A stretch of DNA of 45,442 nucleotides from an uncultured Bacteroidia bacterium (GTDB lineage Bacteria; Bacteroidota; Bacteroidia; J057): positions 1 through 45,442 of the forward strand of contig CAZHOC010000001.1 in NCBI GenBank assembly GCA_964534295.1, read 5' to 3'. Positions 3,208-41,143 of the stretch are shown in pieces. Made by a program: the position numbers and the translations under genes. The notes beneath the pieces are model-generated. The model was not told the DNA's origin. It saw only the letters and a list, made by a program, of their open reading frames with translations, and did no database searches. Numbering within the stretch: position 1 is the stretch's first letter; every line of letters begins with the position of its first letter.

Positions 3208-6200
3208 CTATTTTTGTATTTGCGCGTCTCTCCATTCACCTGGAGATTGCTCGTAGACTTCGCTAAATACTCGATTGAAGTAGGCGGGATCATTGAAGCC
3301 TATGCTGTAGGCCACTTCTGCAACTTGCAGCTCTTCATCCATCAGCAAGATTTTGGCTTGCTCTAATCTGATTGAGCGGATGAAGTAAGTTGTGGTCTTC
3401 CCCGTCAGGGCCTTGATTTTGCGGTGGAGATTGGTGCGGCTGATACCCAGCTCATCGCATAAAGCATTGCCTCGATAATTGGCATCGTCCAGATTGGCTA
3501 GGATAGCTTCTCTGATTTTTTGAATGAAGGCATCTTCCTGTTTGACTTCGGCTTGGGACGGGGGTAGGGGAGGAAGCGGGGCTCCCGACTGATAGCGTTG
3601 CTGCAAGCGTTGCCGAATTTGGAACAGATTATCTAGACGGATTAGAAGTTCTTCCTGATTGAAGGGCTTGGCCAAATAGGCATCGGCGCCTCTTTTGTAG
3701 CCTTCGAGTCGAGATGCTGCATCTGCCTTGGCTGTGAGCATCAAGATAGGAATGTGGCTGGTTCGTTCATCGAGTTTGAGAGTTTCGCATACTTCATAGC
3801 CATTTTTGCGCGGCATCATCACATCAGTGATAATGAGGTCTGGTACTTGTTCTAACGCCATTTCTATCCCGACCTGCCCATCTGGGGCTGTAGATAATTC
3901 ATATTGATCTTGCAAAAGGGTTGAGAGATAGGCTACGATGTCGGCATTGTCTTCGACTATGAGTAGACGAGGGCGATCTCCTTCCGTTGCACCGCCAAGA
4001 TCAAGTGGTAAGGAAATAGGAGAGGGGACCGGAAGTGGTACTGGTATAGCTTCCTGCATCATCGCCTGTTGCCGAATGGGTAAAGAGACGGTGATGGTTG
4101 TACCTTGACCTAGGATACTCTCGGCTTCAATTTTTCCCTCCATGAGCTGCACTAGTTCTTTGGTAAGAGAAAGGCCTACTCCCGTGCCTTCTCCTTGCCT
4201 CGTATCGGTCCCATCTACCTGATAAAAGCGATCAAAAATGTAGGGAAGCTTATCGGCAGGAATTCCACGACCAGAATCTTTGACTTCCAGAATCAGTTGA
4301 TTTTCTGCCATGCGATAGGTTCGCAACTGAATGTCCCCTCCTTCTGGTGTAAACTTGATCGCATTAGAGAGGAGATTATTAGCGATTTGGCCCAACTTCT
4401 CCGGATCAAAATCCATGATCAAAGGACTTTCCTCTGCCACGTACACCAGCTCAACGTCCCTGTTTTCAGCCATGGATTCAAAAGATGCCACACTCAGTTG
4501 CAAAGCCTGGGTGATGTCGCCCTGAATGAGACTAAGACTTAGGTTGCCGGACTCCAATTTGCGCAAATCTAGGATTTGATTGATTAGGTGGAGAAGCCCC
4601 TGGGCATTGCGATCAATAAGAGCAAGACCCTTTTTCTGCCATTTGTCTGGTTGTTGTTGCAGCTGCTGGGTCATGCCAGTGATGACGGTCAGGGGGGTGC
4701 GAAACTCATGGGATATATTGGTAAAGAACTGTGATTTAAAATTGTCGAGTTCGGTGAGCTTTTGGTTGGCTGCGTTTAGCTCGGAGTTAGCCTGATCGAG
4801 TTTTTGCTTTTCCTCTTCTATGATAGTCTTTTGGCGCGCCGTCAACCGAAAGCGATTGAACAATAGGCCCCCAAAGAGCAGGGTTATGCCCAATCCAGCG
4901 AGAAGGAAATAAGAAATCGTTCTTCGGCGCTTGTTTTCTTCGACTTCGGCCGTAAGAAGGGCGGCACTGGCTATGCTGTCGGCTTGAGCCTGCTGCTTGA
5001 ATTCATAGCGAATAGCTGCTCGTTGATTGGCAACGCTAGAGACACTGTCTCTCATCTGAATATAGAGTTGATGATAGTCAAAAGCTTTGGCTTTTTGGCC
5101 GGTCGCGGCCATGCTTTGCCAAAGGATGTCAGCCGCATTCCGGATTCGGGTGGCTGAGTTGGTCTCTGGTTTCGCTTCCAAAACAGAGCGGGCATATTTT
5201 ATGGCCTCTGGCCATTCTTTCGCTTCCAATGCAAGTCTGGCGAGACTTAAGTGAGCACTTTTAACGGTAGAAAGGCCCCTGACTTCATCGGTGAGGCTCA
5301 GCGCTTTTTGATAGGCAAGTGCGGCAGAATCCCGCTGCCCTTCCTCTTTCAATATGGTTCCTAGGATAAGGTGGGCCTGTGCTTCCTCGGTTGTTAATGC
5401 TAGTTCTTTACTGATTTTTAGACTTTGTTGGGCAGTGGTTCTGGCCTGGCTATAAGCACCCATCTGAATATGGGCCATGGATATATTTCTGAGGGTAGCC
5501 GCCATCTTGAATTTGTCGCCTAACTCCTCAAATAGCTGATAACTCCTCTGAGCAAATTCTAGTTCCAGCGGATAGTCTTCCAGATCTTCATATATCTTGC
5601 TGATACTATGTAGAGTGGTGGCGATTCCCCGCTTATCTCCCAATGCTTCCTTTAGACTGAGGCTCTTTTCATAGTTTTCTATGGCTTTTACGGAATTTCC
5701 AGTCTTGTTATCTACCAGACCGAGATTGCCATAGGCATAGGACATGCCCCGTTTATTTTCAAGTAATTGGCTGTTCTCTAGGCTCCGGAGATGATACCAT
5801 CGGGCACTATCGTATTGAGATTGATAGAAAAAGGTGAGACCAATGGCGGTCTGGGTGTTGGCTGCCTCCGCTAAATCCTGAATCTCCTCAAATAGGCCAA
5901 GGCTCTCCTTGCAGTAAGCTAGGCCCTCTTTGTATTTGTTGCGGGTGACATAAATAAAGGCTAGTTGCCGATACATCATTCCCTGAGCCTTCTTATCTCC
6001 CAATTGTTCGAAGACCGCTATGGCACGCTCAAAGTAAGAATGAGCCTGGTCGAATTTACTAAGGTTGTTAGATACAGTACCAAGGGCTCCCAGAGCGGAA
6101 GCTGTTGCTCGTTGGTCTCCATTTTTTTGGTGGATTATCAATGCTTGCTGAAAATAGAATCTGGCGCTATCCATTTCTCCTAGCGCAAGCAAGGCTGCGC

Positions 6201-6606
6201 CCAGTTCGTAGGATGTTTTCCCGACCGTGGGAGAATGATCAACGGCCCTGCTCAGCCTCAAGCCTTCTCTGAGATATGTAATGCCTTGCTCTACTTTCCC
6301 GCTGACGACATAATAAGTCCCCAATATCTGCTTGGCCTGACTCTCTGCTAATTCGTCATCTGCGGCTTGGGCCAATTTTAGTCCTTCCTCCCCAAAAAAC
6401 CGCATGCTGTCTAATTGGGAGTTTAGATAGTGATTGGCCAGGGTATTCATCGCCAGCAGACGGCTTGTATCGGCTAAGCTTTCGTTTGATATTACTTCCC
6501 GCAAAGAGTCCAGATGTATCTGGGCAGGGAGAAGGATGACGGAAAAAAAGTATAGGACAGTGAAAACGAAGCGTCCTTTCATTTGCTTGGGAAGTTGGAT
6601 AGTCAA
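3208..6606 (-). CDS. Hybrid two-component system protein: TPR-repeat sensor, TM helix, HisKA, HATPase, receiver domain and AraC-type HTH
   Basis: 1132 aa. It has a long run of TPR-like repeats and a TM segment (ISYFLLAGLGITLLFGGLLF). The H-box is FFTNISHEFRTPLTVI. The ATPase boxes are NLLSNAIKFTPEGG, DSGRGI and GTGVGLSL. The receiver reads LLIVEDNADIV...ITDVMMPRKNGYE...LTAKA. The C-terminal AraC HTH reads AYFNRVFSEVYEQSPGEWR. Confidence 0.92.
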   Translation of the reverse strand: MTIQLPKQMKGRFVFTVLYFFSVILLPAQIHLDSLREVISNESLADTSRLLAMNTLANHYLNSQLDSMRFFGEEGLKLAQAADDELAESQAKQILGTYYVVSGKVEQGITYLREGLRLSRAVDHSPTVGKTSYELGAALLALGEMDSARFYFQQALIIHQKNGDQRATASALGALGTVSNNLSKFDQAHSYFERAIAVFEQLGDKKAQGMMYRQLAFIYVTRNKYKEGLAYCKESLGLFEEIQDLAEAANTQTAIGLTFFYQSQYDSARWYHLRSLENSQLLENKRGMSYAYGNLGLVDNKTGNSVKAIENYEKSLSLKEALGDKRGIATTLHSISKIYEDLEDYPLELEFAQRSYQLFEELGDKFKMAATLRNISMAHIQMGAYSQARTTAQQSLKISKELALTTEEAQAHLILGTILKEEGQRDSAALAYQKALSLTDEVRGLSTVKSAHLSLARLALEAKEWPEAIKYARSVLEAKPETNSATRIRNAADILWQSMAATGQKAKAFDYHQLYIQMRDSVSSVANQRAAIRYEFKQQAQADSIASAALLTAEVEENKRRRTISYFLLAGLGITLLFGGLLFNRFRLTARQKTIIEEEKQKLDQANSELNAANQKLTELDNFKSQFFTNISHEFRTPLTVITGMTQQLQQQPDKWQKKGLALIDRNAQGLLHLINQILDLRKLESGNLSLSLIQGDITQALQLSVASFESMAENRDVELVYVAEESPLIMDFDPEKLGQIANNLLSNAIKFTPEGGDIQLRTYRMAENQLILEVKDSGRGIPADKLPYIFDRFYQVDGTDTRQGEGTGVGLSLTKELVQLMEGKIEAESILGQGTTITVSLPIRQQAMMQEAIPVPLPVPSPISLPLDLGGATEGDRPRLLIVEDNADIVAYLSTLLQDQYELSTAPDGQVGIEMALEQVPDLIITDVMMPRKNGYEVCETLKLDERTSHIPILMLTAKADAASRLEGYKRGADAYLAKPFNQEELLIRLDNLFQIRQRLQQRYQSGAPLPPLPPSQAEVKQEDAFIQKIREAILANLDDANYRGNALCDELGISRTNLHRKIKALTGKTTTYFIRSIRLEQAKILLMDEELQVAEVAYSIGFNDPAYFNRVFSEVYEQSPGEWRDAQIQK

Positions 6607-6750: not shown

Positions 6751-7559
6751 TTATTTTCGGCTTGTGGTTTCTTTAGAAGGAAAAGAAACCGCTGCTTCTA
6801 GGGCTTGTAAACGGGTCTCCAAAAGCAGGAGTTGTTCAACTTTTAGCTGCAAATCAGCTTTTTCTCGTTCTAATGCCTCAATCCTTCTTTGCTGCTCTTG
6901 AGTAGCACTTACATTGAGCATAGAGAGAGCCTCATAATCTACAGTGTGGAAGTCGTCCACTTCACGACCGTAGACAAAAACGGTTTGGGAGAGATGAGCG
7001 TTCCGCGAAGCGAGAGCCAAAACCTGAAAACGGCCAGACTCAACCGCTTTGACTTCGTATATCTCTGCACTTTCCTCGGTGATGAGTTTGACCCGTTCAC
7101 CTGGTTGAAGATCAGTAGCTAGCATAATCCAGCCATCTTGTAACTCTGCCCGCTGATAGATATCGGGTATGACTTCGGTGAGGTCATTATTTACCGCCTG
7201 AGGGTAAATTGTGGCGACTTGCTGGGCGATGACTTTTTTGATAGGACGTCGACCGTGGGTGATGCTATCGCGGAGATGGTAGTCGGTTACTTCAATCTGC
7301 ATCAAAGTAGTCAGATCAGTTTTACTATCGGAAATCCCTTGGATGTTTTTGATACGCTGGTCAGAATGGGCGTTAAATTCGGAGCCAGCGATAGCATGAG
7401 TGGTATAAATGGAATATGCTTGGGCAGTGGAAACGTTATAAAAGCCTCCTGCCCCGGCAATATTGACAAAGCCATAGGGGCTAATGAGAGTATTTTCAAA
7501 ACCTGAGATTTCGAGTTTGGCGCGAGTGGGGTTGGTGATGCCAATTCCTACATTTCCAG
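6751..7559 (-). pseudogene. N-terminally truncated paralog of the tail-fiber-like gene: the C-terminal ~268 codons, including the S74 domain and coiled coil
   Basis: It is nearly identical to 1-790 in the same orientation. For example, the 50-nt run acaaaaacggtttgggagagatgagcgttccgcgaagcgagagccaaaac is exact at 209-258 and 6974-7023. The frame is open from 7689 down to 6751, but there is no ATG, GTG or TTG upstream of 7305. It encodes AGNVGIGITNPTRAKLEISG...HSDQRIKNIQGISDSKTDLTTLMQIEVTDY. The signal peptide and about 760 N-terminal codons of the full-length gene are absent. Confidence 0.75.
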
Positions 7560-7776
7560 CTTTTCTACCTGCTGTACTTGAGAGTTTAATGTCGCGTTTT
7601 CGACTTTGAGCGCTTCTATCTCCGCTTGGAGGGTTTCTATTATTTGCTGCTACTCTTGAGTGGCACTGACATTGAGCATGGACAGAGCTTCATAGTCAAC
7701 GGTGTGGAAGTCGTTTACTTCGCGACCGTAGACAAAAACGGTTTTTGAGAGATGAGCGTTCCGCGAAGCGAGAGCC
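7556..7776 (-). pseudogene. Second, shorter tail-fiber C-terminal remnant (about 70 codons) with an in-frame TAG
   Basis: The minus strand reads ...ALASRNAHLSKTVFVYGREVNDFHTVDYEALSMLNVSATQE*QQIIETLQAEIEALKVENATLNSQVQQVEKLE. Here caagagtagcagcaa replaces the caagagcagcaacga of the intact copy. Homology stops abruptly at 7776, after gcgttccgcgaagcgagagcc. Confidence 0.7.
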
Positions 7777-11431: not shown

Positions 11432-11446
11432 GCTTTTGGCAGGAGA

Positions 11447-11464
11447 AAAGCGTTCCGCGCAGCG
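11447..11464. repeat. Solo copy of the repeat-family terminal motif (aaagcgttccgcgcagcg)
   Basis: It lies 16 nt after the sdhB stop and matches the TIR core of the elements listed below. Confidence 0.6.
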
Positions 11465-11609
11465 AGAAAAAAACACCAAACAAGCCCGTAATATTTACGA
11501 TAGAGGGATTTTTTGCCCCTTTCTCTTAATACATTTACATTGATCTTAAGGAATGTAAAGCTTTGTTAAGGTGTGATGAAATGCAAAGTGAGCCTCCTAC
11601 CTTTAGCAC

Positions 11610-13756: not shown

Positions 13757-13782
13757 GATTTGGGCTGTTTATTGGGGGTTCT

Positions 13783-14036
13783 CCGCTGCGCGGAACGATT
13801 ATCCCTGGCAATGCGGTGCGGGTGCGGCATACATGCCCGCAGCTACCCGCATAATCATTTCGAGCGAGCGCAGCGACGAGAAATCTCCTTTCACTCAATT
13901 GTAATTACATCTGGAAGCCAAGGAGATTTCTCGTCGTCCCGAGAATCGGGACTCGCTCGAAATGCAAATTGGGTCGCTTTCGGGTGCGACAAGGCACCGC
14001 CTTTTCGCGATAGGGATAAGCGTTCTGCGAAGCAGG
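13783..14036. mobile_element. MITE/REPIN-like element E1 (about 254 bp) with ~24-bp terminal inverted repeats and a long internal hairpin
   Basis: The left end is ccgctgcgcggaacgattatccct (13783-13806). The right end is agggataagcgttctgcgaagcagg (14012-14036), its near reverse complement. The internal hairpin has arms catttcgagcgagcgcagcgacgagaaatctcct (from 13856) and aggagatttctcgtcg...cgctcgaaatg (to 13964). It also carries a gcgacaaggcaccgcc module and a tgcgggt..acccgca hairpin. Confidence 0.75.
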
Positions 14037-14086
14037 AAACAGAAATATGAAACCCTGCTTTGCAGCATGCCTAATAGAGGAGATAC

Positions 14087-15577
14087 TTAGGATTGTGTCT
14101 TTCTGGGGTACAACTTTGAAAAGATCCAGCCAGTGATGATGGCAAACAAAAAGGAGGGGGCCAATACATCCAGCTTTTCAAAGTAGGGACCAACACCGTC
14201 CATATTGGCTACTACAAATTTGAAGAAGGGCACACAAAGAAAGCCCGTAATCATAGAAGCGATGGCACCCGCTTCAGAATATCCTTTGTAGAATAAAGAC
14301 AATATGATCACCGGACAGAAAGAGGCGGCAATTCCTGACCAACCAAAGATGACCATCCAAAAGACGGTTCGATTGGGAGAGTTTACGGCTATGAGCATGG
14401 CAATGGCTAAAGCGAGAATCGCCATGATTAGGGTAACCGCTCTCGACATCTTGGTGAGATCCTTATCTGGAATACTGGGATTGAAGATTTTTTGATAAAA
14501 GTCTCGGGTGATGGCACTTGAGGCAATCACCAAGAGGGAATCTATGGTGGACATGATGGCCGAAAGCACCACCGCGACATAAATGGCAACCAACAAATAA
14601 GGCAAGAAATTTTCGGTCATAATGGAAAGGACATCCTCACCTGCATTGCCAAGAATTGCTTCGGGGTCTTGGCCGCTTTCTGTAAATAAGATTCTTGCTA
14701 GCACGCCGATCGTTACGGCAGCAGTATCTGTCAATAAGGTAAAGATGACCGCAACCCATTTTCCTTTATCAATTTCTAATTCGTTTTTGATGGACATAAA
14801 ACGAACATAGACTTGAGGAGAACCCAAGAAGCCTAAACCGATCATGGCAAAGCCAAGCATAGTGGCAATGTTCATCCAGGGATCATCGCTAGGTCCCCAT
14901 ACATTGGTGAGCGCTGGGTCAATCTGATTGAGGCTTTCAACTATGCCGAGGCCTCCGTCCATCGAAAAGTAAACTACCAGAGGTAGGAGGAGTAGGCCAA
15001 AAAACATCAATAGTCCCTGAAACAAATCCGACCAGACCGCGGCGACAAAGCCCCCAATAAAGATGTAGGTCAATACGATGAAAAAGCCAATAATGGCTCC
15101 AACGTAATAATCAATCCCCATCATTGATTCAAAGGCTTTGCCCGTGACATCAATTTGCGAGCTGACATAAATGATCACAAAAAGGGAAAGAATGGTAGAG
15201 GCTAAAATGCGTAGGGTCTTGGTATTGGACTGAAAATGACTTTCTAAATAATCAGGCACGGTGATGGCCTGGTATTCGTCGGTCTTTCGTTTGAAGCGTT
15301 TAGCCATATACCACCATGAAACGGCAACTCCTAGGACTTCTCCCACTACTACCCAATAGGTCGATAGACCAGAAATAGCGCCCATGCCCGTCAAGCCGAT
15401 CAACAACCAGCCCGATTCGCCAGTCGCTCTGGCCGAAAAAGCCACTGCCCAAAAGCCCATATTTTTGCCCCCTACATAAAAATCACTCATGCTTTTGACT
15501 CGCCGAGAGGCAAAAATGCCAATAAGAAACAGGGCTAGGACATATAGCCCTAAAGCAATTAGTTTAGAGATTTCCAT
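14087..15577 (-). CDS. Sodium:solute symporter (SSS family) transporter
   Basis: 496 aa and polytopic. The N-terminal pattern DFYVGGKNMGFWAVAFSARATGESGWLLIGLTGMG is typical of PutP/PanF-type SSS proteins. It lies 47 bp downstream of the decarboxylase on the same strand. Confidence 0.85.
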   Translation of the reverse strand: MEISKLIALGLYVLALFLIGIFASRRVKSMSDFYVGGKNMGFWAVAFSARATGESGWLLIGLTGMGAISGLSTYWVVVGEVLGVAVSWWYMAKRFKRKTDEYQAITVPDYLESHFQSNTKTLRILASTILSLFVIIYVSSQIDVTGKAFESMMGIDYYVGAIIGFFIVLTYIFIGGFVAAVWSDLFQGLLMFFGLLLLPLVVYFSMDGGLGIVESLNQIDPALTNVWGPSDDPWMNIATMLGFAMIGLGFLGSPQVYVRFMSIKNELEIDKGKWVAVIFTLLTDTAAVTIGVLARILFTESGQDPEAILGNAGEDVLSIMTENFLPYLLVAIYVAVVLSAIMSTIDSLLVIASSAITRDFYQKIFNPSIPDKDLTKMSRAVTLIMAILALAIAMLIAVNSPNRTVFWMVIFGWSGIAASFCPVIILSLFYKGYSEAGAIASMITGFLCVPFFKFVVANMDGVGPYFEKLDVLAPSFLFAIITGWIFSKLYPRKTQS

Positions 15578-15624
15578 AGGTAAGAGTTGGGGCTTAAGGG
15601 GAATGAGTTAACGCTTGATAGGCA

Positions 15625-17016
15625 TCAAGCCGTGATAGATGGCTCAAATAAGTGGGCATTTTCTGCCACAAACTGCTCCAATATTTTGAAGAAGTCTAAT
15701 ATATCCTGATGTTCGTTTTGGGCATTGATGGTGACCAAACGGATAAACTCATCTTCTTTAAAAGTACCGTAGCCTACCAAAAGCTTTGCATGCTCATAGA
15801 GTAGGGTGCAAATATCACGGGCCGGAATCCCTTTATAATTAAAGCAGATGGCAATGGAGTCATCAAAGCTATAGAGAGTATAATCTTTATTGTTGCGGAC
15901 ATACTCTCTGGCCGTATCGGCTAAGGCGAATTGGTGATCTACGATTTTTTCCAGACCAGAGGTACCTACGCTCTTCCAAAGCGTCCAAAATTTGAGGGCA
16001 TCATTTCTTCGACCACACTGCAAGGAGGTCTTGCCGAGATTGAATTCGTCGTGATCCGTTTGATACAGATAATTGGCATCATTGGAAAAAGAATCGTAAA
16101 GATGCTTTTTGTCTTTTACGACAATGATCGAACAAGAGAGGGGGGTCCCGATCATCTTATGGGCATTAAAGCTAAAGGAGTCCACCAGCTCTACGCCGTC
16201 AATGAGGTGCTTGTACTTTTCACTAAATAAAACGGAGCCACAATATGCACCATCGATATGTAGCCACATATTATGTTGTTTGCAGATGGCACTGACGGAG
16301 CGGACTGGATCAAATGCGCCGAGTACAGTCGTGCCTGCAGTCAGATTGACCATGATCGGTAATCCTCCAGCAAGTTTATCCGCCTCTACCATTTCGGCTA
16401 ACAGTTTTGTATCTATCCGGCCTTCATCATCTGTCGGCACATAACGGACATTTTCTCTACCGATGCCACTGAAAGCGGCATTTTTAGGAATGCTATAGTG
16501 AGATTCTTTTGAAGTATAGACCAGCATTTTTTGCTGCATCCCCTGTTGCTTTACAGTCTCGGATGCGGCATCTCTCGCCATGAGCATAGACATGAAGTTG
16601 GTCATAGATCCGCCGGGTGCTAAAGTACCATCCGAATTTTGATCCCAACCGATCATATCACAAACTTCTCTCAATATCTTTTTTTCTACTCCTATTTGTG
16701 GCCCTGCTGCCTTATAGGTGTACATACTATTATTAAGGATAACAGAGAGTAGTTCTCCTAGTATGGCTTGCTCATTGCGCCCTCCAAATAACTGATTGAA
16801 AAAACCCGTGGTGGCGGTTCGGGTCGAAGCAAAAACGAGTTCTCTTACAACCTGCTCAAATTCACTTTCACTTAATGGCTCCTTTTTTAAGGATAAATCG
16901 AGGCTCTCGTACAATTGAGAGGAAGGAATATGCTTGGCAACTGGATTTTTCTCTTCATCCTCCAACAACGCAGTCGTAATCCGTTGAAATAATTCAAGTC
17001 CTTTTTTCATGGTCAA
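15625..17016 (-). CDS. Group II PLP-dependent decarboxylase, predicted cysteine sulfinic acid decarboxylase (CSAD)
   Basis: 463 aa. The PLP-lysine motif is FNAHKMIGTPLSCS. FFNQLFGG...NNSMYTYK aligns with animal CSAD FFNQLFSG...NTSQYTYE. That places F, S (+20) and Y (+22) at the three selectivity positions; GAD65 has S, N and F there. Confidence 0.78.
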   Translation of the reverse strand: MTMKKGLELFQRITTALLEDEEKNPVAKHIPSSQLYESLDLSLKKEPLSESEFEQVVRELVFASTRTATTGFFNQLFGGRNEQAILGELLSVILNNSMYTYKAAGPQIGVEKKILREVCDMIGWDQNSDGTLAPGGSMTNFMSMLMARDAASETVKQQGMQQKMLVYTSKESHYSIPKNAAFSGIGRENVRYVPTDDEGRIDTKLLAEMVEADKLAGGLPIMVNLTAGTTVLGAFDPVRSVSAICKQHNMWLHIDGAYCGSVLFSEKYKHLIDGVELVDSFSFNAHKMIGTPLSCSIIVVKDKKHLYDSFSNDANYLYQTDHDEFNLGKTSLQCGRRNDALKFWTLWKSVGTSGLEKIVDHQFALADTAREYVRNNKDYTLYSFDDSIAICFNYKGIPARDICTLLYEHAKLLVGYGTFKEDEFIRLVTINAQNEHQDILDFFKILEQFVAENAHLFEPSITA

Positions 17017-17168
17017 AAGTTTAAAACACTTTTAAATTTACAGAAAGTAGAAAAAAACAATATAAAGTACCAGATTTGTAAGTGTTGAAAGTGAAAAATA
17101 CTACTATTTTTCATTTTGTAGAAAAAAATACTTATATACCTGCGCTTGCACATCAAGAATTTTTACTT

Positions 17169-17705
17169 ATGAATCATATTGGGACGCTAGAAGAATTAGT
17201 GAAGGCTTTAGATGGGGCAGACTCAAATGGTTACCCTAAGATCATGAAGCGGATACAGATTAGAGAGAGTGGCTTATCTGCCTATGCTACATGGATGGAG
17301 CAAGGTTATACACGCAACTGTTTGTATCGCAGCCCAAACTATGAACTCATTTTATTGTGTTGGGATATTGACGCTCAAACCCCTATCCATGGACACGGCG
17401 GCGAGGATTGCTGGGTATATCAGGTGCAAGGTACCGTTGAGGAAATCCGGTTCAGTGAAAAAGCAGGCGTTTTACATGAAACCCAACGCTTGGAATTGGC
17501 GCCCGGAAAGTTGACTTATATGCATGATCGCATGGGCTATCATTCTATTGTCAATATTTCGAACCAACGTGCGATGACCTTACATATTTACGATTCCCCC
17601 ATTGACGCTTGTAAGGTGTATAATGATCAAAAAGACTGTTTCGAAATCAAAGAAATGTCCTATCACACTTTTAAAGGAAGTGAAGTAGGTTCTCCCGTCT
17701 CATAG
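17169..17705 (+). CDS. Cysteine dioxygenase type I (cupin), Arg-type
   Basis: It aligns by eye with rat CDO: YTRNCL (YTRNLV), LILLCWDIDAQTPIHGHGGEDCWVYQVQGTVEEIRF ([36 protein letters not shown]), GYHSIVN (GLHRVEN) and LHIYDSPIDAC (LHLYSPPFDTC). I prefer the ATG at 17169 (MNHIGTLEEL) over the track's GTG at 17082. Confidence 0.8.
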   Translation: MNHIGTLEELVKALDGADSNGYPKIMKRIQIRESGLSAYATWMEQGYTRNCLYRSPNYELILLCWDIDAQTPIHGHGGEDCWVYQVQGTVEEIRFSEKAGVLHETQRLELAPGKLTYMHDRMGYHSIVNISNQRAMTLHIYDSPIDACKVYNDQKDCFEIKEMSYHTFKGSEVGSPVS

Positions 17706-17811
17706 CATGCTGCATTAAAGTAATTCCCTAATAGAGATTTTCTAGGTATTGTGGTGTTCTTCCGGTTATTGTTTTTTAGATTAGCGTCTAAAGCAGAATA
17801 TTTTACTGGAA

Positions 17812-18270
17812 ATGGACCCAATTGACTTGAAAATCCTTGACATGCTTCAGGCTAATTCTCGCCGAACAGCCAAAGAAATGGCAATGGAATTATCCCTGAC
17901 TTCCACCCCTGTTTATGAACGCATCAAGAAATTAGAAAAGGCAGGATATATCAAGCAATATGTCGCTCTGCTCAATACTGATTTGCTCAATAAGCAAATC
18001 ATCGTCTTTATGAATATCACTATTAAAGACCATCATAAAGAGGCGCGAGATGAATTTGTGCAAAGCATGGAGGCACTAGATCAAGTCTCCGAATTTTATC
18101 ATACCTCAGGCAGCTTTGACTTTTTGGCCAAAGTTAGGTTCGCCAATATCAAAGACTATAGAGATTTTCTCGTCAACCAAGTAGCTGCTATCCGCAATAT
18201 CAGTGACATTGATAGTCAAATTGTACTAGAGGAAATCAAATATTCTACCAAAGTAGCGCTGGACAAATAA
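17812..18270 (+). CDS. Lrp/AsnC family transcriptional regulator
   Basis: 152 aa. MDPIDLKILDMLQANSRRTAKEMAMELSLTSTPVYERIKKLEKAGYI is the canonical HTH_AsnC N-terminus, followed by a RAM-type C-terminal domain. Confidence 0.92.
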   Translation: MDPIDLKILDMLQANSRRTAKEMAMELSLTSTPVYERIKKLEKAGYIKQYVALLNTDLLNKQIIVFMNITIKDHHKEARDEFVQSMEALDQVSEFYHTSGSFDFLAKVRFANIKDYRDFLVNQVAAIRNISDIDSQIVLEEIKYSTKVALDK

Positions 18271-18286
18271 GCGTTCTGCGCAGCAG
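18269..18286. repeat. Solo terminal motif (aagcgttctgcgcagcag) overlapping the lrp stop codon
   Basis: It is the same sequence as the right ends of elements E2 and E3. Confidence 0.6.
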
Positions 18287-18347
18287 CTCACATTTATTTC
18301 AAAAAGAAGAATAGGTATCTTATCAAGATCATACCAATGCGAAGCCA

Positions 18348-19898
18348 ATGATTTTGATCCCTACTCTCTGCCTACGAACTAACCTAAGTGTTTTTCTCTC
18401 GCTTCTCATCTCTGCTTTGCTTTTTTCTGCATGTGCAGAAACCGAGCCCAATCGACCCAACATCATTATCATCTATGCAGACGACATGGGCTATGGGGAC
18501 CTAAACTGTCAAAATCCAAACTCCAAAATCCCCACTCCCAATCTTGACAAACTTGCGTCAGAAGGTATGCGCTTTACCGATGCCCATAGTTCTTCCGGTA
18601 TTTGCTCGCCCAGTCGCTTCGCCCTCCTTACGGGTAGTTATCATTGGCGTAGACAGCATGGCATAGTGGGAGCCTTTGGTAAACCGTTTTTTGAGGATAC
18701 AGATATCACTTTACCCCAACTTTTAAAGGCAGATGCTTATCAAACGGCTTGTATTGGTAAATGGCATTTGGGTTGGAATTGGCCCTTTAAAAATGAGCCC
18801 TCCGGAGAAGTCATGCAATGGGGCAAGGTGAGGAAATATTATTTGCCTGAAGACATCGACTGGAGTCAAGCCATCGGCGGAGGTCCCCTAGACCGCGGTT
18901 TTGATTACTACTTTGGTGATGGCACCATTAATTTTCCTCCTTATGCTTGGGTTGAAAATGACCGTTTGCTTGAAGCACCTACCGAAGTAATGGACATCAA
19001 TAATGTGGGTTTTGATACCAAAGAAGGGCAGTGGGAGTTTCGACCAGGACCGAAGGTCAAAGACTGGAATCCCTATGAAGTGCTACCGACCCTGGCTGAT
19101 AAGACCGTAGAGTGGATAAATAATCGCAATGAAGAGGAACCCTTCTTCTTATACTTTGCCTTACCTTCTCCGCATGCTCCCATCATCCCTAATGATGAGT
19201 TTGATGGAAAATCTCAGGCAGCGGCCTATGGTGATTTTGTCTATCAAACCGATTGGGTAATTGGTCAAGTTCTCAATGTCTTGAAAGAAAAGGGGCTGGA
19301 AGAGAATACCATCATTGTTTTTAGTGCCGACAATGGACCAGAGTCATACGCTTGGGCGCGAGCTGAAAAATTCGATCACTTTAGCATGGGTCAATTTCGG
19401 GGTTTAAAACGCGATGTTTGGGAAGGAGGCCATCGTGTGCCATTGATTGTAAAATGGCCGGGGCAAATCAGGGCCAATTCAGTTTCAGAAGAAGTAATCT
19501 CTCAAGTGGATTTGATGGCTACATTAGCAAAGTTGACGAATATCAACTTGCCCGAAAATGCAGCCCCTGATAGCTATGATTTTACTGAGGTTTTTCTGGG
19601 AAAAGCCTATCACTCACCCATAAGAGAGGCGACCGTTCATAATACCTATGAATCAACTTGGGGCCTCCGAAAAGGCGACTGGCTATACATCAACAGTAAT
19701 ACTGGCGGCCATCGGAAACTACCTACATCCTTTCAAGAATTAAAGGGCTATTCGGATTTTGAAACGCAGGGAATCTTATTTGATATGAAAAAAGATGCCG
19801 AGCAACGCACCAACCTATACCAAGCTTACCCAGAAAAGGTCGCCGAAATGGATAGCCTGATACAGCTTTATCGAGCTTCTGAGAGGACGGTGCGCTGA
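18348..19898 (+). CDS. Arylsulfatase (formylglycine-dependent sulfatase family), probable lipoprotein
   Basis: 516 aa. The signal or lipobox is LLFSACAE. Motifs include [14 protein letters not shown], the FGly motif [11 protein letters not shown] and GKWHLG. Confidence 0.9.
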
Positions 19899-19913
19899 TT
19901 TTTTTTATGAGGC

Positions 19914-20128
19914 CCGCTTCGCGGAACGCTTGTCGCTCAATAATCGTCTAATCATTTCGACGGAGCGCAGCGACGAGAAATCTCCTTGACTTCTAGATGT
20001 ATTTACAATTGAGCGATAGGAGATTTCTCGTCGGCCGTTGCCCTCTGTCGAAATGCAAATTTGATGGGTTTTAGTTGCGCCAAGGCACTGCCTTGGCGCG
20101 TGCTTGGTATAAGCGTTCTGCGCAGCAG
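19914..20128. mobile_element. MITE/REPIN-like element E2 (215 bp)
   Basis: The left end is ccgcttcgcggaacgcttgtcgc and the right end is ataagcgttctgcgcagcag. The internal long hairpin spans 19953-20055, followed by the palindrome gcgccaaggcactgccttggcgc. Confidence 0.75.
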
Positions 20129-20249
20129 TAAAAAAAAGCCCGCTCACTCAGTGAACGGGCAGCAGTCTCTTGGTTTGGGGTTTACATTAGATTTCGACAA
20201 AAGAACGATATTAGCGAGACTGGATTCGCGGAAGTCGTTCCTTAATGTG

Positions 20250-30224: not shown

Positions 30225-30809
30225 GCTACGGCATGCATGCCGTGTCTACCGTCAATTTTCCTTTCGAGCGAGCGCAGCGAGGAGAAATCTCCTATCAGCA
30301 TTTAGTAAGTTCAACTTGAAGCCAAGGAGATTTCTCGTCGGCGGTTGGCCTCCGTCGAAATGACTTATAGGAAGATTGAATGCCGCAGAGCTCAGTGGTA
30401 CATAAGAGAATTCAAGCTTAGGCACAAATCATCATTGTCATCCTGAGCGATAGCCGAAGGACCTTTAGGTTGCTTTACCGCTTCGCGGAACGCTTGGCAT
30501 AATGCTACGGCATGCATGCCGTGTCTACCGTCAATTTTCCTTTCGAGCGAGCGCAGCGACGAGAAATCTCCTATCAGCAATTAGTAAGTTCAACTTGAAG
30601 CCAAGGAGATTTCTCGTCGGCCGTCGGCCTCCGTCGAAATGACTTATAGGGAGATTGAATGCCACAGAGCTCAGTGGTACATAAGAGAATTCAAGTTTAG
30701 GCACAAATCATCATTGTCATCCTGAGCGATAGCCGAAGGACCTTTAGGGAGATTGGGGCGACAAGGCACTGCCTTGTCGCCTGCTAGAGACAAGCGTTCT
30801 GCGCAGCAG
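30225..30809. repeat. Tandem pair (period 279 bp) of a 245-bp repeat unit; the second unit sits inside a complete TIR-bounded element E3 (30478-30809)
   Basis: The units span 30225-30469 and 30504-30748 and are nearly identical. Each reads gctacggcatgcatgccgtg...long hairpin...gtcatcctgagcgatagccgaaggacctttagg. A left TIR ccgcttcgcggaacgcttgg (30478) lies between the units. After the second unit come the palindrome gcgacaaggcactgccttgtcgc and the right TIR caagcgttctgcgcagcag. Confidence 0.85.
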
Positions 30810-30891
30810 TCCTCCCAAACACAATCCAACTTCACAACCTTATTTAGTTTACTGAGTTTTATCTATAGCAACCAACCATAAATGAAAACTC

Positions 30892-34779: not shown

Positions 34780-34910
34780 TTGCGGAAAAACTTCAAGCTA
34801 GTATTTAAAGATCCCGGATAATGCTTATTCTTCGCATTTCCGGGATGACCTTTGGGGGTATTATCATAAGGGGTAATTGCGGCATGCATGCCCCAACTAC
34901 AATCGAATAT

Positions 34911-34926
34911 GCGTTCCGCGAAGCGG
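34911..34926. repeat. Solo terminal motif (gcgttccgcgaagcgg) next to a gcggcatgcatgcc palindrome
   Basis: It lies in the convergent intergenic region, 68 nt beyond the stop of the 34994..37435 gene. The ggcatgcatgcc module at 34880-34891 recurs at 30230 and 30509. Confidence 0.6.
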
Positions 34927-34993
34927 CAAAAAAAAACACCACCATCCCAATCAGTATCGGAATAGCGGCGCCACTGCGGTATAAAAGATTGCA

Positions 34994-37435
34994 TTAATGT
35001 CTTATCACGCTCTGTATGCTGCGTCGCGTTTCTTGGATCAGTTCGAGATGGTAAAGTCCTTTGGGCAATGCACTGAGGTTGAGTCGTTTTTGTGTTTCAC
35101 CCTGCGGGGAACGCTCATCCGTGATCAGCTGCCCTTGCATATCCCACAAACGAATTTGCGTGGCAGGACCTCTCTCCCAACGGATCATAATCTCTCCCTG
35201 AGTGGGGTTCGGGAATATGCTGAGACCTTGCACCTCCAATAGGTCCGTAATCGAAGTGCTGATGTTTGCCTCCAACGGCTCCACACTTACGTCCAAGGTG
35301 TTTTCGTCTTTGTCGATCATATCGAGACGAGCCACGCTCATCGCAAATGGAATCATCGCTTTGGCGATATCATCATCCATCACTACAATGATATTGGCGA
35401 GGCGGCCGTAACCGCTGACGTTAGCTTGATCAAGGCGTACCTGAGCTAAATCAATTCGGCCGAAGTCCGCTAAGTTTTTACTGTAGCTAAGTAGGTCTAC
35501 GCCATTGGTTCCCAACCAGCTAGGGTTCATATCGACGAGCATACTTTCTACCTGGCTGGTATCATAGTCGAGCGAGAAGGCGATGCCGTATACATCTTGG
35601 GCCAAGGTATCCATGGTGCCCAACCAAACGCCCACTTCAATGGTATCTCCCGGGTCGATTACTGTATCTGAAACGGTGAAGTAAAAGGGCGCGCCATCGA
35701 CGGATTCATCATCGCGTTGGCTAAGATGGGTAAAACCATAGTTGAGGTCAATCGCTAGCGTATCGTCCCGATCGATGGTGCCATTGCCGTCGCTATCGAC
35801 ATGTTTGAGGTTCACGCCTGAAGCGAGGCTATCATTCCAATCAGGGGCAGTTTGGCCGACCCAATTGAGAGAAGCGTTCGGCCGAGCCGGACCCGTAGAT
35901 AAATAATGCAAACCAATCGGCAAGATATCCCAAGCATCAGCTATTTGATCATGGTTGGCATCTCCGGGATAGACTTCACCTGCGATCACACAGCTATCTA
36001 CTCCGGCATCATACCAGGCTTGAATATAATCGGCATCCGCGCCAAGATTACAGGCATTTTGGAGGTAGTTGCCCTCTTTATTGATGATGATTGCCATCAC
36101 GATGGTATCGCTCGCATTGGGGCCTAGCATGAAGGGTCCGCTACTCCCTATCGCCCGACGGTCAATCGGTTGGATGCCGGCATTGGCCATGGTCCAGCCT
36201 ACTTGATTGCAGACATCACCAGAGAAGATGAAGTCAGTTGGGGGGCCACTGGCACTATCCGGATTGCCGTTACCGGGGCCGCCATTGCTGTAATTGTCCA
36301 CAGCGTGGACGCCGGGAGGGTTGCTGGTGCTGGGGATAAAGCTCTGGAGGTTGCCATAGTAGTGCTGCGAAGTGGTTGGTGTGATGGTGAAATCATTGCG
36401 GTAGGTCAGGAAGTTGGTCAACCCCATGTCCTCTCCTGGCTCGTCAACTACACCATCGCTATCATTATCGATCCCATCGTTCAGCGGAGCTGTACCCCCT
36501 CTCAACATCTGAATACCGACAGCAGGAGTATTGGCGCCAAATTGATTGTCATTATTAGTGCCATTGTAGCCGTAGTACATGCCTCGGATGGAGTCTACGC
36601 CTACATAATCATCCAAAAAACCGCCCAAATCAAAATCTGTCCATTGACCGGCATAGACATCAGCATAAGTTTCATTGCTGCGATTGACGAGATGGTATTC
36701 TAGGAAAATGGATTCCTCTAGTTCATTGCCGGGGCAATCATAGCCATAAAGCAAAGCGTGAACCTCCAATCCCATGGGACTCGGATTGTAGCGATCATTG
36801 GCTGGGTCTGGACCACGGTCGTTAAAGACCCACCAGATCATGGCGTCGCCTTTGAGTCGAGGATGATCCCCTTGGTCAGGATTGTAGTCATTGGGATTGC
36901 CGTTTACATCTACCCATGGCGCAGCATTGGCAAGGGTATTGCCATTGAAATCTACCAAAAAGGCCGGCCAGTCATAGACATTGGGGTAGGCGCTGGGGTT
37001 ATCCACGACTCCATTGTCTTGAAAATCTTGTAAATAAGCCTCCAATTCCACCCGATCAATTTTCCAAAAGCGATCATGTTGTGCTGTAGTGATGCTATCA
37101 GTTGCGGCGGTGTTTTGAGAGAGTGGACCCGGCCAAAAATCATAACCAGTACCCTGCCAAGAACCCCAATCATGCACGCTAAGATGAAGCTGGCCACTCT
37201 GGGCGATACCCCCAATCCAAAGGCCAGAGCCTGTTACCAGACCGATATTGGCGTCCTGTGTCATGAGTCCACCAAAAAGATTGTTTTCAAACAGAGCGCC
37301 ATCGCTGCGGACGAAGGCTTTGACATTACCGACCTCGAGCGAATCATAAGCAAAAGGCCATATTTGAGCAGTAAGCGTAGTTGCGAGTGTGAGGATAAAG
37401 AAGGTTAGAAAAGGCTTTTTCATGGTCTTAAACAA
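34994..37435 (-). CDS. Large secreted protein with calcium-binding/dockerin-like repeats, a cohesin-like module and a T9SS C-terminal sorting domain
   Basis: 813 aa with a signal peptide. Repeats are DGIDNDSDGVVDEPGED, GDANHDQIADAWD and VDSDGNGTIDRDD. The cohesin-like stretch is TIEVGVWLGTMDTLAQDVYGIAFSLDYDTSQV. The CTD is LSIFPNPTQGEIMIRW...LPKGLYHLELI. Confidence 0.7.
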   Translation of the reverse strand: MFKTMKKPFLTFFILTLATTLTAQIWPFAYDSLEVGNVKAFVRSDGALFENNLFGGLMTQDANIGLVTGSGLWIGGIAQSGQLHLSVHDWGSWQGTGYDFWPGPLSQNTAATDSITTAQHDRFWKIDRVELEAYLQDFQDNGVVDNPSAYPNVYDWPAFLVDFNGNTLANAAPWVDVNGNPNDYNPDQGDHPRLKGDAMIWWVFNDRGPDPANDRYNPSPMGLEVHALLYGYDCPGNELEESIFLEYHLVNRSNETYADVYAGQWTDFDLGGFLDDYVGVDSIRGMYYGYNGTNNDNQFGANTPAVGIQMLRGGTAPLNDGIDNDSDGVVDEPGEDMGLTNFLTYRNDFTITPTTSQHYYGNLQSFIPSTSNPPGVHAVDNYSNGGPGNGNPDSASGPPTDFIFSGDVCNQVGWTMANAGIQPIDRRAIGSSGPFMLGPNASDTIVMAIIINKEGNYLQNACNLGADADYIQAWYDAGVDSCVIAGEVYPGDANHDQIADAWDILPIGLHYLSTGPARPNASLNWVGQTAPDWNDSLASGVNLKHVDSDGNGTIDRDDTLAIDLNYGFTHLSQRDDESVDGAPFYFTVSDTVIDPGDTIEVGVWLGTMDTLAQDVYGIAFSLDYDTSQVESMLVDMNPSWLGTNGVDLLSYSKNLADFGRIDLAQVRLDQANVSGYGRLANIIVVMDDDIAKAMIPFAMSVARLDMIDKDENTLDVSVEPLEANISTSITDLLEVQGLSIFPNPTQGEIMIRWERGPATQIRLWDMQGQLITDERSPQGETQKRLNLSALPKGLYHLELIQETRRSIQSVIRH

Positions 37436-39093: not shown

Positions 39094-39429
39094 ATTCTTT
39101 GTCCTTTTGTCATTGCTACAAAAGGACCCAAAAATCTAGTCAGCCACGAACCGCTCCACTAGCCGCCCCATTTCCCCGGTCTCGATTTTAAGGATCGGGA
39201 ACAGGGGCCTCACCTCGCCTTTCATTTCGACAGAGGCACGAGAAACGGGCCGACGAGAAATCTCCCTTACCTCAAAACGTTTTACAATTAGGCGACAGGA
39301 GACTTCTCCTCAGCCTGCGGGCTTCGTTCGAAGTGAATTAAGAGTCCAATCCATGCGCCTAGGCTTTTGCACGGGCCGTTCCGATAGCTATCGGGATTGC
39401 TGCCCTTTTTGCGAAAAAGGGCAAAGAAT
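39094..39429. mobile_element. About 336-bp element with a different TIR (ATTCTTTGYCCTTTT) that carries an inverted, diverged copy of the long hairpin module (39223-39335)
   Basis: The left end attctttgtcctttt (39094-39108) matches the reverse complement of aaaagggcaaagaat (39415-39429). Each end also forms its own perfect 10-bp hairpin: 39101-39127 and 39401-39423. The reverse complement of the internal 39223-39335 matches the hairpin arms of E1-E3. Confidence 0.55.
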
Positions 39430-39580: not shown

Positions 39581-41143
39581 ATGCGCTTATCCATTCTATT
39601 ACTTTGCCTTGGCTTGAGCATTTCGCTCCAGGCCCAAAATCCTAATATCCTGCTCATTATTGTCGACGATATAGGCGTGGATCCTATACCCGGCTATACC
39701 TCTAATGCTGGGGCGATCAAAGCCAATATGCCGCATCTTCAGGCCTTGGCTGATAGTGGGCTTACCTATGACAATGCCTGGGCTAATCCAGTTTGCTCGC
39801 CGACTCGGGCGGCGATCTTGAGTGGCAAATACGGCTTCCGTACTGGGGTGCTCAATCCGCAGGACCAATCTCGGATCATGAAATCTGAGACCACTTTGCA
39901 TGCTTATCTTGATAGCGCCTCGGGAGGCAACTATGCGCAGAGCTTAATCGGGAAGTGGCACCTTGGCGGTACCGCCAACAATAATTATGATTACCCCGTC
40001 GAAATGGGAATTGACTATTTCGCTGGCATTATGGGCGGTGGCGTGCCCGATTATTTTTCATGGCCTTTGGTCGAAAATGGCCAACAAGCCACAGATACTA
40101 CTTACGCGACGACAAAACTTACCAATCTTGCTATTGATTGGATTCAAGCCCAAAATCAGCCTTGGTTTTGTTGGTTGGCTTACAATAGCGCCCATACACC
40201 TTATCATCTGCCGCCCGCTGAAATGCATACGCAAACCGGATTGAGTGGGGATTCAATGGATATTGAAAACAATCCGCTGCCTTACTATCTCGCGATGATC
40301 GAAAGTCTCGATTATGAATTAGGGCGCATCATGGACAGCATACCTCAAAGTATGCTCGACAATACCACGATTATTTTTGTAGGAGACAATGGCACCCAAA
40401 GGGGTGTGATTCAAGCGCCTTACAATGGCCAAAAAAGTAAAGGCTCGCTTTATCAAGGTGGGGTACACGTGCCCATGATCGTTTCGGGAGCGGGGATTAG
40501 TCGCCAAGGTGAGCGTGAAGCATCATTGATCAGTGTGACGGATATTTTCCCTACGGTATTAGAGTTGGGTGGGATAGCTACACCTTCGGTGAACGATGGA
40601 TTTAGTTTTTATTCCACCTTTAATACGGCCAATAGTGGCATTCGCCACTGCGCCTATGCGGAGGTGGATGATGGCAGCGACAAATCTGGCTGGACGGTAC
40701 GTGAGGATACCTTTAAGTTGATCCATTTTAGCAATGGTACCGATGAAATGTACGATCTTTTGCAAGATCCTTATGAAAACGTCAATCTCTTGACTGGCCC
40801 AACGCCGATGACTGCTGCTCAAACAGCGGCTTACCAACGCCTGAGCAATTTGTTTCAGGATAGTGTTAGCGCCTGCATTTTCCCCGCTAGTCTGAGCACC
40901 AGCAACGAACAAGCGTTCCGCGCAGCGGCCCTCCAAATCTACCCCAATCCGCTGCAAGACCAGCTACAAATCGAGTCAAGCGCCATGATCCCTCTTGATT
41001 ATAAAGTCTATGACCTAAGAGGTCGGATCATCCAAAGTGGCGAGCTCCAAAGCGGCAAAAACCAATGGAACACCAGCCAATGGCCAGCCGGGATTTATGT
41101 GATTGCGGCCGGAGAGGAGAAGCAAAAAGTGATTAAATATTGA
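39581..41143 (+). CDS. Sulfatase (FGly-dependent) with a T9SS C-terminal sorting domain
   Basis: 520 aa. Motifs are the signal peptide, NILLIIVDDIGVD, the FGly motif CSPTRAAILSG and GKWHLGG. The CTD is LQIYPNPLQDQLQIES...WPAGIYVIAAG. Confidence 0.9.
   Translation: MRLSILLLCLGLSISLQAQNPNILLIIVDDIGVDPIPGYTSNAGAIKANMPHLQALADSGLTYDNAWANPVCSPTRAAILSGKYGFRTGVLNPQDQSRIMKSETTLHAYLDSASGGNYAQSLIGKWHLGGTANNNYDYPVEMGIDYFAGIMGGGVPDYFSWPLVENGQQATDTTYATTKLTNLAIDWIQAQNQPWFCWLAYNSAHTPYHLPPAEMHTQTGLSGDSMDIENNPLPYYLAMIESLDYELGRIMDSIPQSMLDNTTIIFVGDNGTQRGVIQAPYNGQKSKGSLYQGGVHVPMIVSGAGISRQGEREASLISVTDIFPTVLELGGIATPSVNDGFSFYSTFNTANSGIRHCAYAEVDDGSDKSGWTVREDTFKLIHFSNGTDEMYDLLQDPYENVNLLTGPTPMTAAQTAAYQRLSNLFQDSVSACIFPASLSTSNEQAFRAAALQIYPNPLQDQLQIESSAMIPLDYKVYDLRGRIIQSGELQSGKNQWNTSQWPAGIYVIAAGEEKQKVIKY

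Follow-up and report, generated by a model that had tools for sequence, protein, structure and literature searches.

A predicted cysteine-to-hypotaurine gene module, and related CDO::CSAD gene fusions, in marine Bacteroidota

A cluster of genes between positions 14,087 and 18,270 of a metagenome contig from an uncultured Bacteroidia bacterium, analysed here as a window of 45,442 nt to which all position numbers refer, raises the question of whether such an organism could convert cysteine to hypotaurine by means of a linked set of genes. Within it, a cupin gene with the features of a cysteine dioxygenase (CDO) is transcribed divergently from the gene for a pyridoxal 5'-phosphate (PLP)-dependent decarboxylase resembling cysteine sulfinate decarboxylase (CSAD); the latter is followed by the gene for a sodium/solute symporter (SSS) family transporter, and the former by that for an Lrp/AsnC-family regulator. 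From the residue alignments and gene neighbourhoods described below, the locus is probably a cysteine-to-hypotaurine module. In the pathway proposed, the cupin would act as an iron-dependent CDO converting L-cysteine and O2 to cysteine sulfinate, which the divergently encoded PLP decarboxylase would convert to hypotaurine, any subsequent formation of taurine being either non-enzymatic or dependent on an enzyme encoded elsewhere. The co-transcribed Na+ symporter would move a pathway-related zwitterion, the uptake or recapture of hypotaurine or taurine being the most likely function, and the regulator, in this Saprospiraceae-type lineage, would probably respond to an amino acid in controlling the divergent promoters. 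The product may serve as a compatible solute and/or an antioxidant.

Residues and relatives of the enzymes and the symporter

Similarity searches conducted with the decarboxylase against all PDB sequences placed CSAD first, ahead of GADL1 and glutamate decarboxylase (GAD): human CSAD (2jis; E = 2.9e-80) and mouse CSAD (4e-80) were followed by GADL1 (1.3e-78), GAD67 (1.7e-70) and GAD65 (3.1e-67), with corresponding bit scores of 274 for CSAD, 268 for GADL1 and 242 for GAD67. Alignment superimposed the FFNQLF-(19 aa)-S-M-Y segment of the window enzyme on FFNQLF-(19 aa)-S-Q-Y of human CSAD, and a multiple alignment gave the selectivity triad as F-S-Y in both proteins (F94, S114 and Y116 in human CSAD numbering, with the same columns occupied in the window decarboxylase), Y-S-Y in GADL1 and S-N-F in GAD67. 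The assignment of Phe, Ser and Tyr to the selectivity positions, made in a preliminary description of the sequence, consequently survived a proper alignment, in which each residue of the triad falls in the same column as its counterpart in human and mouse CSAD. The motif had been attributed there to Agnello et al. (2013), an attribution corroborated by later papers; according to a 2026 preprint citing that study, mammalian CSADs carry F-X19-S-X-Y and the characterised CSAD of Synechococcus PCC 7335 carries W-X19-S-X-Y. Mutagenesis of mouse CSAD has shown that Phe94 matters specifically for the binding of cysteine sulfinate.

Outside the triad, the PLP-lysine motif NAHK aligned with NPHK (Lys305) of human CSAD, and this lysine column was kept in all of approximately 80 sequences inspected from a 138-sequence alignment. 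Similarly, SHYS aligned with CHYS (His191) and ANYLYQ with ASYLFQ (Tyr335), His191 and Tyr335 being described in the literature as the PLP-stacking and catalytic-loop residues, respectively, of the human enzyme. One 461-aa homologue of the decarboxylase, from a metagenome-assembled genome (MAG) of Fluviicola sp. (P0377), is labelled 'cysteine synthase' in NCBI/nr, probably a mis-annotation.

Equivalent PDB searches with the cupin returned mammalian CDO1 (1.5e-15), Bacillus subtilis CDO (3.6e-6) and, far below these, 6xb9 (0.17), an entry deposited under the name 'Cysteine dioxygenase type I protein'. The CDO landmarks previously noted in the cupin were borne out by alignment to human CDO1, from which Tyr58, Arg60, His86, His88, Cys93, His140, His155 and Tyr157 are all kept, the YTRN motif falling on human Y58-T-R60-N; the exception is Ser153, which is replaced by Thr, and the positions of Ser158-Pro159 also differ. 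Examination of 40 CDO homologues neighbouring related decarboxylase genes demonstrated that the His86/His88/His140 iron site, Cys93, His155 and Tyr157 were conserved in every one, and that Tyr58 and Arg60 were kept in 38, the other two being gapped at those columns. Arg60, in concert with Tyr58, binds the carboxylate of cysteine and sets Arg-type CDOs apart from Gln-type 3-mercaptopropionate dioxygenases; by this classification, Arg60 presumably marks the window cupin as a true cysteine dioxygenase. Cys93 and Tyr157, the residues paired in the eukaryotic thioether crosslink, are thus present in the window CDO and all 40 homologues. In most CDOs of bacteria, position 93 is Gly, Cys93 being a minority condition found in some Gram-negative pathogens.

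The best NCBIfam match of the symporter was PutP (TIGR02121), at 336 bits against a cut-off of 515, and the protein is 31.5% identical to Escherichia coli PutP. It resembles the Na+/proline symporters PutP and OpuE in belonging to the SSS five-helix-repeat fold family and in retaining A53, A337, S340 and T341 (PutP numbering), which are taken here to be the Na+-site residues. Five further PutP residues are replaced (D55 to G, M56 to E, W244 to I, Y248 to F and C344 to S), and these residues are likewise replaced in 25 of 26 symporter homologues, D55, W244 and Y248 by the same amino acids. An ordinary PutP was excluded by the sub-threshold score taken together with the replaced ligand-site residues Asp55, Trp244 and Tyr248, and by these measures the protein is no orthologue of PutP and belongs to an SSS subfamily of its own. 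Unlike that of PutP, moreover, its gene is linked to a CSAD-like gene and not to putA. Within three-gene loci the symporter is the most conserved of the trio, with a median identity of 76%, the decarboxylase reaching 71% and the CDO 49%. It would most plausibly constitute an uptake system for a pathway-related zwitterion, the recapture or scavenging of hypotaurine or taurine being the first guess and the import of a precursor the alternative.

Linkage and fusion of the genes, and the readings they permit

Relatives of the locus were sought in a scan of one genome per species; since FFNQLFGG and LNNSMYTY served as the peptide patterns for retrieval, conservation of the triad among the genome loci retrieved is by construction. 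From each scan the 80 best loci were analysed, the genome loci encoding proteins with 63-84% identity to the window decarboxylase; the presence of CDO and symporter genes was judged within 8 kb, and local absence in this sense does not mean absence from the genome. Relatives of the decarboxylase were recorded in at least 544 species-representative genomes, most of them from marine Bacteroidota and some from Alphaproteobacteria (Kordiimonas, Litorimonas, Hyphomonadaceae), the nearest genome relatives of the contig being Saprospiraceae MAGs. The family is accordingly not rare, and the small number of bacterial CSADs mentioned in the preliminary description does not describe it.

A divergent CDO gene adjoined the decarboxylase gene in 40 of the 75 genome loci with enough flanking sequence, and a symporter gene lay directly 3' of it in 28 of 71. 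For the 67 loci with both flanks available, 24 had CDO and symporter, 12 CDO only, 2 symporter only and 29 neither. Median spacing was 157 bp between the CDO gene and the decarboxylase start and 46 bp from the decarboxylase stop to the symporter gene, and unbiased clustering of all open reading frames (ORFs) within 6 kb confirmed that only the CDO and symporter families recur across lineages. When a metagenome scan was conducted from the side of the symporter, 435 relatives were found, and 63 of the best loci had enough upstream sequence to be assessed: linkage was apparent in 36, comprising 29 with the decarboxylase gene directly upstream and 7 with a rearranged architecture in which the CDO gene stands between the other two (CSAD<-CDO<>SSS). 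In locus L155, for example, the genes for a CDO (35% identity, 3e-40) and a decarboxylase run in the same direction with 10 nt between them, the symporter gene being transcribed divergently from the pair. The link between transporter and pathway genes that had been proposed from the window is therefore visible from both directions.

These observations support a conserved core of three genes, CDO<>CSAD-SSS. Of the four-gene module envisaged in the preliminary description, this core held good in many loci, and the Lrp gene did not, being confined to a few of Saprospiraceae type: orthologues with 83-91% identity occupied the same position in 5 of the 80 genome loci (L003, L004, L009, L012 and L015) and the gene was missing from the remaining 75. 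The cultured Aureispira sp. CCB-E, for which a complete genome is available, has an identical four-gene layout, with an AsnC-family gene of 158 aa at the Lrp position and a decarboxylase orthologue at 82% identity to that of the window. A second cultured carrier of the decarboxylase gene is Salibacter halophilus KCTC 52047 (L080). The Lrp gene would thus be a lineage-specific companion of some Saprospiraceae-type loci, perhaps with the role of a local regulator.

The alphaproteobacterial decarboxylases, from marine Caulobacterales, Hyphomonadaceae, Litorimonas and Kordiimonas (L036, L040, L043, L049, L051, L052, L056, L057 and L061), share 66-70% identity with the window protein and so are as close to it as many from Flavobacteriaceae, which suggests transfer of the gene between the two phyla. 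Their neighbours are unrelated housekeeping genes, a result that eliminated these loci as a clue to another precursor route. Hyphomonas jannaschiana reportedly contains a glucuronosyl-diacylglycerol taurineamide lipid, one possible sink for the product in alphaproteobacterial carriers.

A further arrangement emerged when 1.84 billion cluster representatives were searched exhaustively. The top match (P0121; L088, 6001-7905) was a protein of 634 aa, 57% identical to the window enzyme over its decarboxylase part and bearing approximately 187 extra N-terminal residues. Pfam assigned residues 14-162 to CDO_I and 217-578 to Pyridoxal_deC, and the landmarks of both enzymes are present (Y-x-R, H-x-H, Cys93, His140 and H-x-Y, followed by FFNQLFGG...NNSMYTY), the CDO domain sharing 37% identity with the CDO of the window (E = 1e-39). 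A search conducted with this protein identified full-length fusions in approximately 33 distinct clusters at 90% identity, 622-654 aa in length and 53-100% identical to it; the fusions (P0121 and P0285-P0316) occur in Chitinophagales and Flavobacteriaceae MAGs and on contigs of up to 2.9 Mb. Given some 33 diverged clusters and contigs of such length, the CDO::CSAD fusions are a diversified gene family and no artefact of assembly. No description of them was found in the literature searched.

None of the fusion loci had a symporter gene adjoining the fusion. In three related lineages the fusion genes lie beside those for TrkAH, MsrB and SelO, with MsrA and OsmC in addition in one of the three, and in a fourth lineage a Usp gene is close by, a stress-gene context compatible with hypotaurine acting as an osmolyte or antioxidant. 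The three architectures, CDO<>CSAD-SSS, CSAD<-CDO<>SSS and CDO::CSAD, provide, short of biochemistry, the strongest argument available that the dioxygenase feeds the decarboxylase, and the natural fusions argue for the two enzymes acting in sequence.

Two other fusion proteins involving this decarboxylase clade may be recorded here. The same search returned an 893-aa protein with 22 cluster members (P0264), in which a cysteine-synthase-like PALP domain is joined to Pyridoxal_deC. A single-member cluster (P0135, 673 aa) combines a divergent cupin, containing HGHGHAEW and giving no Pfam CDO match at 1e-5, with an F-S-Y decarboxylase.

The enzymatic core first predicted for the window, from cysteine through cysteine sulfinate to hypotaurine, is strongly supported by the residue alignments, the divergent pairing, the co-directional architecture and the fusion clusters. 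Several results weigh on the other side. A test of orthology, namely whether the decarboxylase is closer to animal CSAD than to GADL1 or GAD, came out negative, its identity being 36% to human CSAD, 35% to mouse GADL1 and 35% to human GAD67, proteins of a group (human CSAD, GADL1 and GAD67) sharing 55-67% identity among themselves. Judged by these identities and by bit scores, the enzyme would form a deep-branching bacterial lineage within the clade of acidic-amino-acid decarboxylases and is no orthologue of animal CSAD, and given this equidistance its functional assignment rests on three residues and the genomic context. That context is itself incomplete, since neither CDO nor symporter lies nearby in 29 of the 67 loci assessed on both sides, or in any of the 9 from Alphaproteobacteria. 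Equally, 27 of the 63 close symporter homologues stand alone among housekeeping genes (72-76% identity; metagenome loci in the range L120-L175), with no decarboxylase or CDO gene within 4 kb, so the transporter is not strictly dedicated to the pathway. The stress genes around the fusions may reflect lineage synteny through shared ancestry. Finally, the window holds no enzyme for converting hypotaurine to taurine and no consumer of the product, searches of it for a hypotaurine oxidase, tauD, tpa and xsc having found none.

The last of these results is also what would be expected of the rival reading that survives best, although it remains unlikely: that the locus serves the disposal of cysteine, with the CDO removing a toxic excess, the decarboxylase rendering that step irreversible and hypotaurine excreted as waste. 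The substrate imported by the symporter would then be cysteine, cystine or some other amino acid; the Lrp-type protein would sense amino-acid surplus, in keeping with the frequent control of amino-acid catabolic genes by regulators of the Lrp/AsnC family. Because the chemistry is the same as in hypotaurine production, the linkage evidence fits disposal equally well, and the literature describes bacterial CDO as a cysteine-scavenging, detoxifying enzyme. For such a purpose, however, a CDO would be enough, with its product, cysteine sulfinate, then transaminated to give pyruvate and sulfite, and the fusion of the decarboxylase to CDO in approximately 33 clusters is hard to explain if its product is waste. 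It would also be odd to pair a waste-making step with an importer, which is what Na+ symporters are, and the genes adjoining the fusions are those of stress protection.

Considerably less probable is a second reading, in which hypotaurine production is replaced by the decarboxylation of aspartate to beta-alanine, as by GADL1 or the insect enzyme, or of cysteate to taurine, with the adjacency of CDO a matter of loose co-regulation. Both CSAD and GADL1 accept aspartate and cysteate, and the window enzyme is no more similar to the one than to the other; JGI names on some of its homologues include 'sulfinoalanine decarboxylase' and 'sulfinoalanine decarboxylase/aspartate 1-decarboxylase', and in 29 of 67 loci, among them every alphaproteobacterial one, there is no CDO nearby. 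The residue at X1 is nonetheless Phe, as in CSAD, and not the Tyr of GADL1; the PanP model of NCBIfam scored 129 bits against a cut-off of 606; and covalent fusion to CDO across many lineages makes cysteine sulfinate the obvious substrate. That the cupin is instead a dioxygenase of 3-mercaptopropionate or another thiol, or the decarboxylase a GAD making gamma-aminobutyric acid, leaving the locus unconnected with hypotaurine, is highly improbable, for although bacterial CDO homologues include dioxygenases of non-cysteine thiols and many homologues of the decarboxylase are annotated 'glutamate/tyrosine decarboxylase-like', the Arg60 and Tyr58 conserved in all the ungapped CDO homologues, the weak match to 6xb9 compared with mammalian CDO, a triad of F/S/Y as against S/N/F in GAD and a score of 26 bits against a cut-off of 380 with the bacterial GAD model TIGR01788 all count against it.

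Gene boundaries, regulator and other features of the window

The four ORFs of the proposed module were all present in the ORF list at the coordinates and on the strands originally assigned to them, the sole difference being 6 nt at the decarboxylase start, and the ORF coordinates likewise reproduced the 47 nt originally given as separating the decarboxylase gene from that of the symporter (Table 1).

Table 1. Features of the locus, with positions in the 45,442-nt window.
Feature	Position	Strand	Details
SSS-family Na+/solute symporter, PutP-like but of a distinct subfamily	14087..15577	-	496 aa; Pfam SSF 254 bits, E = 2.9e-75
Group II PLP acidic-amino-acid decarboxylase, predicted CSAD-like	15625..17010	-	461 aa; Pfam Pyridoxal_deC (PF00282) 264 bits, E = 2.3e-78
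Divergent intergenic region between decarboxylase and CDO starts	17011..17168		158 bp, AT-rich; presumed promoters and regulator binding
Cysteine dioxygenase (CDO), predicted, Arg-type cupin	17169..17705	+	178 aa; Pfam CDO_I (PF05995) 61 bits, cut-off 23
Lrp/AsnC-family transcription regulator	17812..18270	+	152 aa; PF13404 (HTH_AsnC-type) 47.9 bits, PF01037 (AsnC_trans_reg) 65.8 bits
Arylsulfatase, Pfam Sulfatase	18348..19898	+	516 aa; next ORF after the Lrp gene

The mechanical ORF list started the decarboxylase at TTG 17016 (463 aa). The homologue consensus MKNxLDLFQ favours ATG 17010, and the protein called on each of two identical metagenome contigs has 461 aa, in agreement with it, so that ATG 17010 is most likely the true start. 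For the CDO gene, the source gene callers selected GTG 17082 (207 aa) in place of the ATG 17169 of the preliminary description. The median length among homologues is 175 aa, their starts align with ATG 17169, and the Aureispira CDO was called at 178 aa; on these comparisons ATG 17169 would be the better choice. No terminator-like site was found in a scan of the interval between decarboxylase and symporter, which are probably co-transcribed.

The regulator gene follows that of the CDO by 106 nt on the same strand. Its product scored 112 bits with the Lrp equivalog model, below the cut-off of 233, and on that score would belong to the Lrp/AsnC family without being Lrp itself. Immediately 5' of the decarboxylase ATG, conserved blocks (ACTAA...TTAGTG TTTTAAAC) were apparent in an alignment with the Saprospiraceae and Aureispira loci. 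A scan for sigma-70 promoters gave 6 sites as compared with 12.7 in shuffled controls, the consensus employed being inapplicable to promoters of Bacteroidota.

The adjacent arylsulfatase, for which a connection had been left possible in the preliminary description, proved not to be linked: the gene was missing at all 80 related genome loci and was rejected as a part of the module. Its lipoprotein-type signal and CSPSR formylglycine motif indicate what is predicted to be an exported enzyme, unconnected with cytoplasmic cysteine metabolism. A second sulfatase gene, at 39581-41143, encodes a C-terminal sorting domain of the type IX secretion system (T9SS) and is also unlinked to the module in related genomes.

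An intergenic hairpin repeat of approximately 190 nt was found at 13852-14044, 19949-20137, 30225-30748 (a tandem pair), 39251-39283 and 45387-45441. It has a perfect 17-bp stem (CGACGAGAAATCTCCTT ... AAGGAGATTTCTCGTCG) and a 29-nt loop, the stem giving 10 matches in the window against a chance expectation of 0.14, and the unit occurs in both orientations, the loop at 19952 being the reverse complement of that at 13855. Two small ORFs, at 13760-14050 (+) and 19905-20147 (-), derive from translation of the repeat. Two copies bracket five genes, the possibility of a mobile cassette being discounted in view of further copies at 30259, 30538, 39251 and 45387; these too are always intergenic, and the element is a genome-wide repeat. 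An Rfam scan of the window gave nothing at the gathering threshold, and the hairpin repeat has no Rfam match. A shorter motif, AAGCGTTCYGCGMAGCRG, occurs at nine places (219-257, 6984-7022, 11436-11474, 14006-14044, 18257-18295, 20099-20137, 30780-30818, 34897-34935 and 35860-35898), often just 3' of genes and once between the Lrp and sulfatase genes, and may be a terminator-like element or one resembling repetitive extragenic palindromes (REP-like). Long direct repeats at 29-328, 6794-7093 and 7636-7776, and at 890-2109, lie around the gene at 3208-6606 for a TPR/hybrid histidine kinase of 1132 aa; they comprise a 300-nt class at 83% identity, a 141-nt class in three copies and 132-nt tandem units, and may be paralogous or repetitive coding segments.

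Known systems and significance

As cited in later papers, Agnello et al. (2013) reported CSAD activity in Synechococcus and a CDO plus CSAD route to taurine in marine bacteria. In a 2024 preprint, 'a few marine microbes' are said to have CSAD and CDO together in an operon, and a 2026 review names Synechococcus as the sole prokaryotic producer. A literature search for a CDO-CSAD module in Bacteroidota found no study of one, the species list of Agnello et al. (2013) lying outside its coverage. The window locus shares with the pathway of Synechococcus sp. PCC 7335 both enzyme families, the predicted chemistry, CDO-CSAD linkage and Ser and Tyr at X2 and X3. It differs at X1, which is Trp in the Synechococcus CSAD and Phe, as in mammals, in the window decarboxylase, and representatives of the W-S-Y type are only 31-37% identical to the latter. 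Beyond the Synechococcus-type pathway, the clade of the window enzyme adds the SSS symporter, Lrp in one lineage, the CDO::CSAD fusions and a breadth of at least 544 species genomes.

Comparison with the mammalian CDO1 to CSAD pathway reveals a common F-X19-S-X-Y triad, PLP lysine and catalytic-loop Tyr in the decarboxylases, and in the dioxygenases the three-His site, Arg60 and the Cys93/Tyr157 pair. The window genes are, by way of contrast, clustered with that of a transporter, an arrangement without animal counterpart, and identity to human CSAD is low, as already given. GADL1 and the insect aspartate 1-decarboxylase share the fold and clade of the window enzyme, and GADL1 approaches CSAD closely in PDB score; it has Tyr in place of Phe at X1 and no link to CDO, in both of which the window decarboxylase differs from it. 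A parallel to the fusions may be provided by microalgae, in which a fusion of a cysteine-synthase-like protein with a PLP decarboxylase (CS/PLP-DC) was reportedly described by Tevatia et al. in 2015. The CDO::CSAD proteins likewise join an upstream taurine-pathway enzyme to a decarboxylase of the same clade, and the PALP-containing P0264 is reminiscent of CS/PLP-DC itself. Unlike CDO::CSAD, the microalgal fusion has PALP as its partner domain, and its route would use serine/sulfite and cysteate rather than cysteine and O2.

The chemistry of the proposed pathway is that of the textbook, with a bacterial precedent from 2013, and the prediction is accordingly plausible and useful to the specialist and hardly surprising. 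What is modestly new is the linked symporter, the fusions, the lineage-specific Lrp gene, a clade with the Phe-type triad and a breadth far past 'a few'. A bolder combination of claims, regarded here as possible rather than probable, is that the symporter founds an SSS subfamily for hypotaurine and taurine or for cysteine sulfinate, that the module and its single-polypeptide 'hypotaurine synthase' fusions together represent a widespread source of oceanic hypotaurine and taurine in marine Bacteroidota, overlooked in that reviews to date name Synechococcus alone, and that the product functions as both osmolyte and antioxidant.

Taurine and hypotaurine are major marine currencies of organic sulfur and nitrogen, usually credited to animals and algae. 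If the present reading is true, hundreds of species of marine Bacteroidota and some Alphaproteobacteria produce hypotaurine or taurine, and the source term for marine sulfonates would need revision. The symporter would offer a first entry point to SSS-type transport of such solutes, and the natural CDO::CSAD fusions would offer single-gene tools for engineered taurine production. With Aureispira sp. CCB-E and Salibacter halophilus as cultured carriers, these predictions are directly testable.

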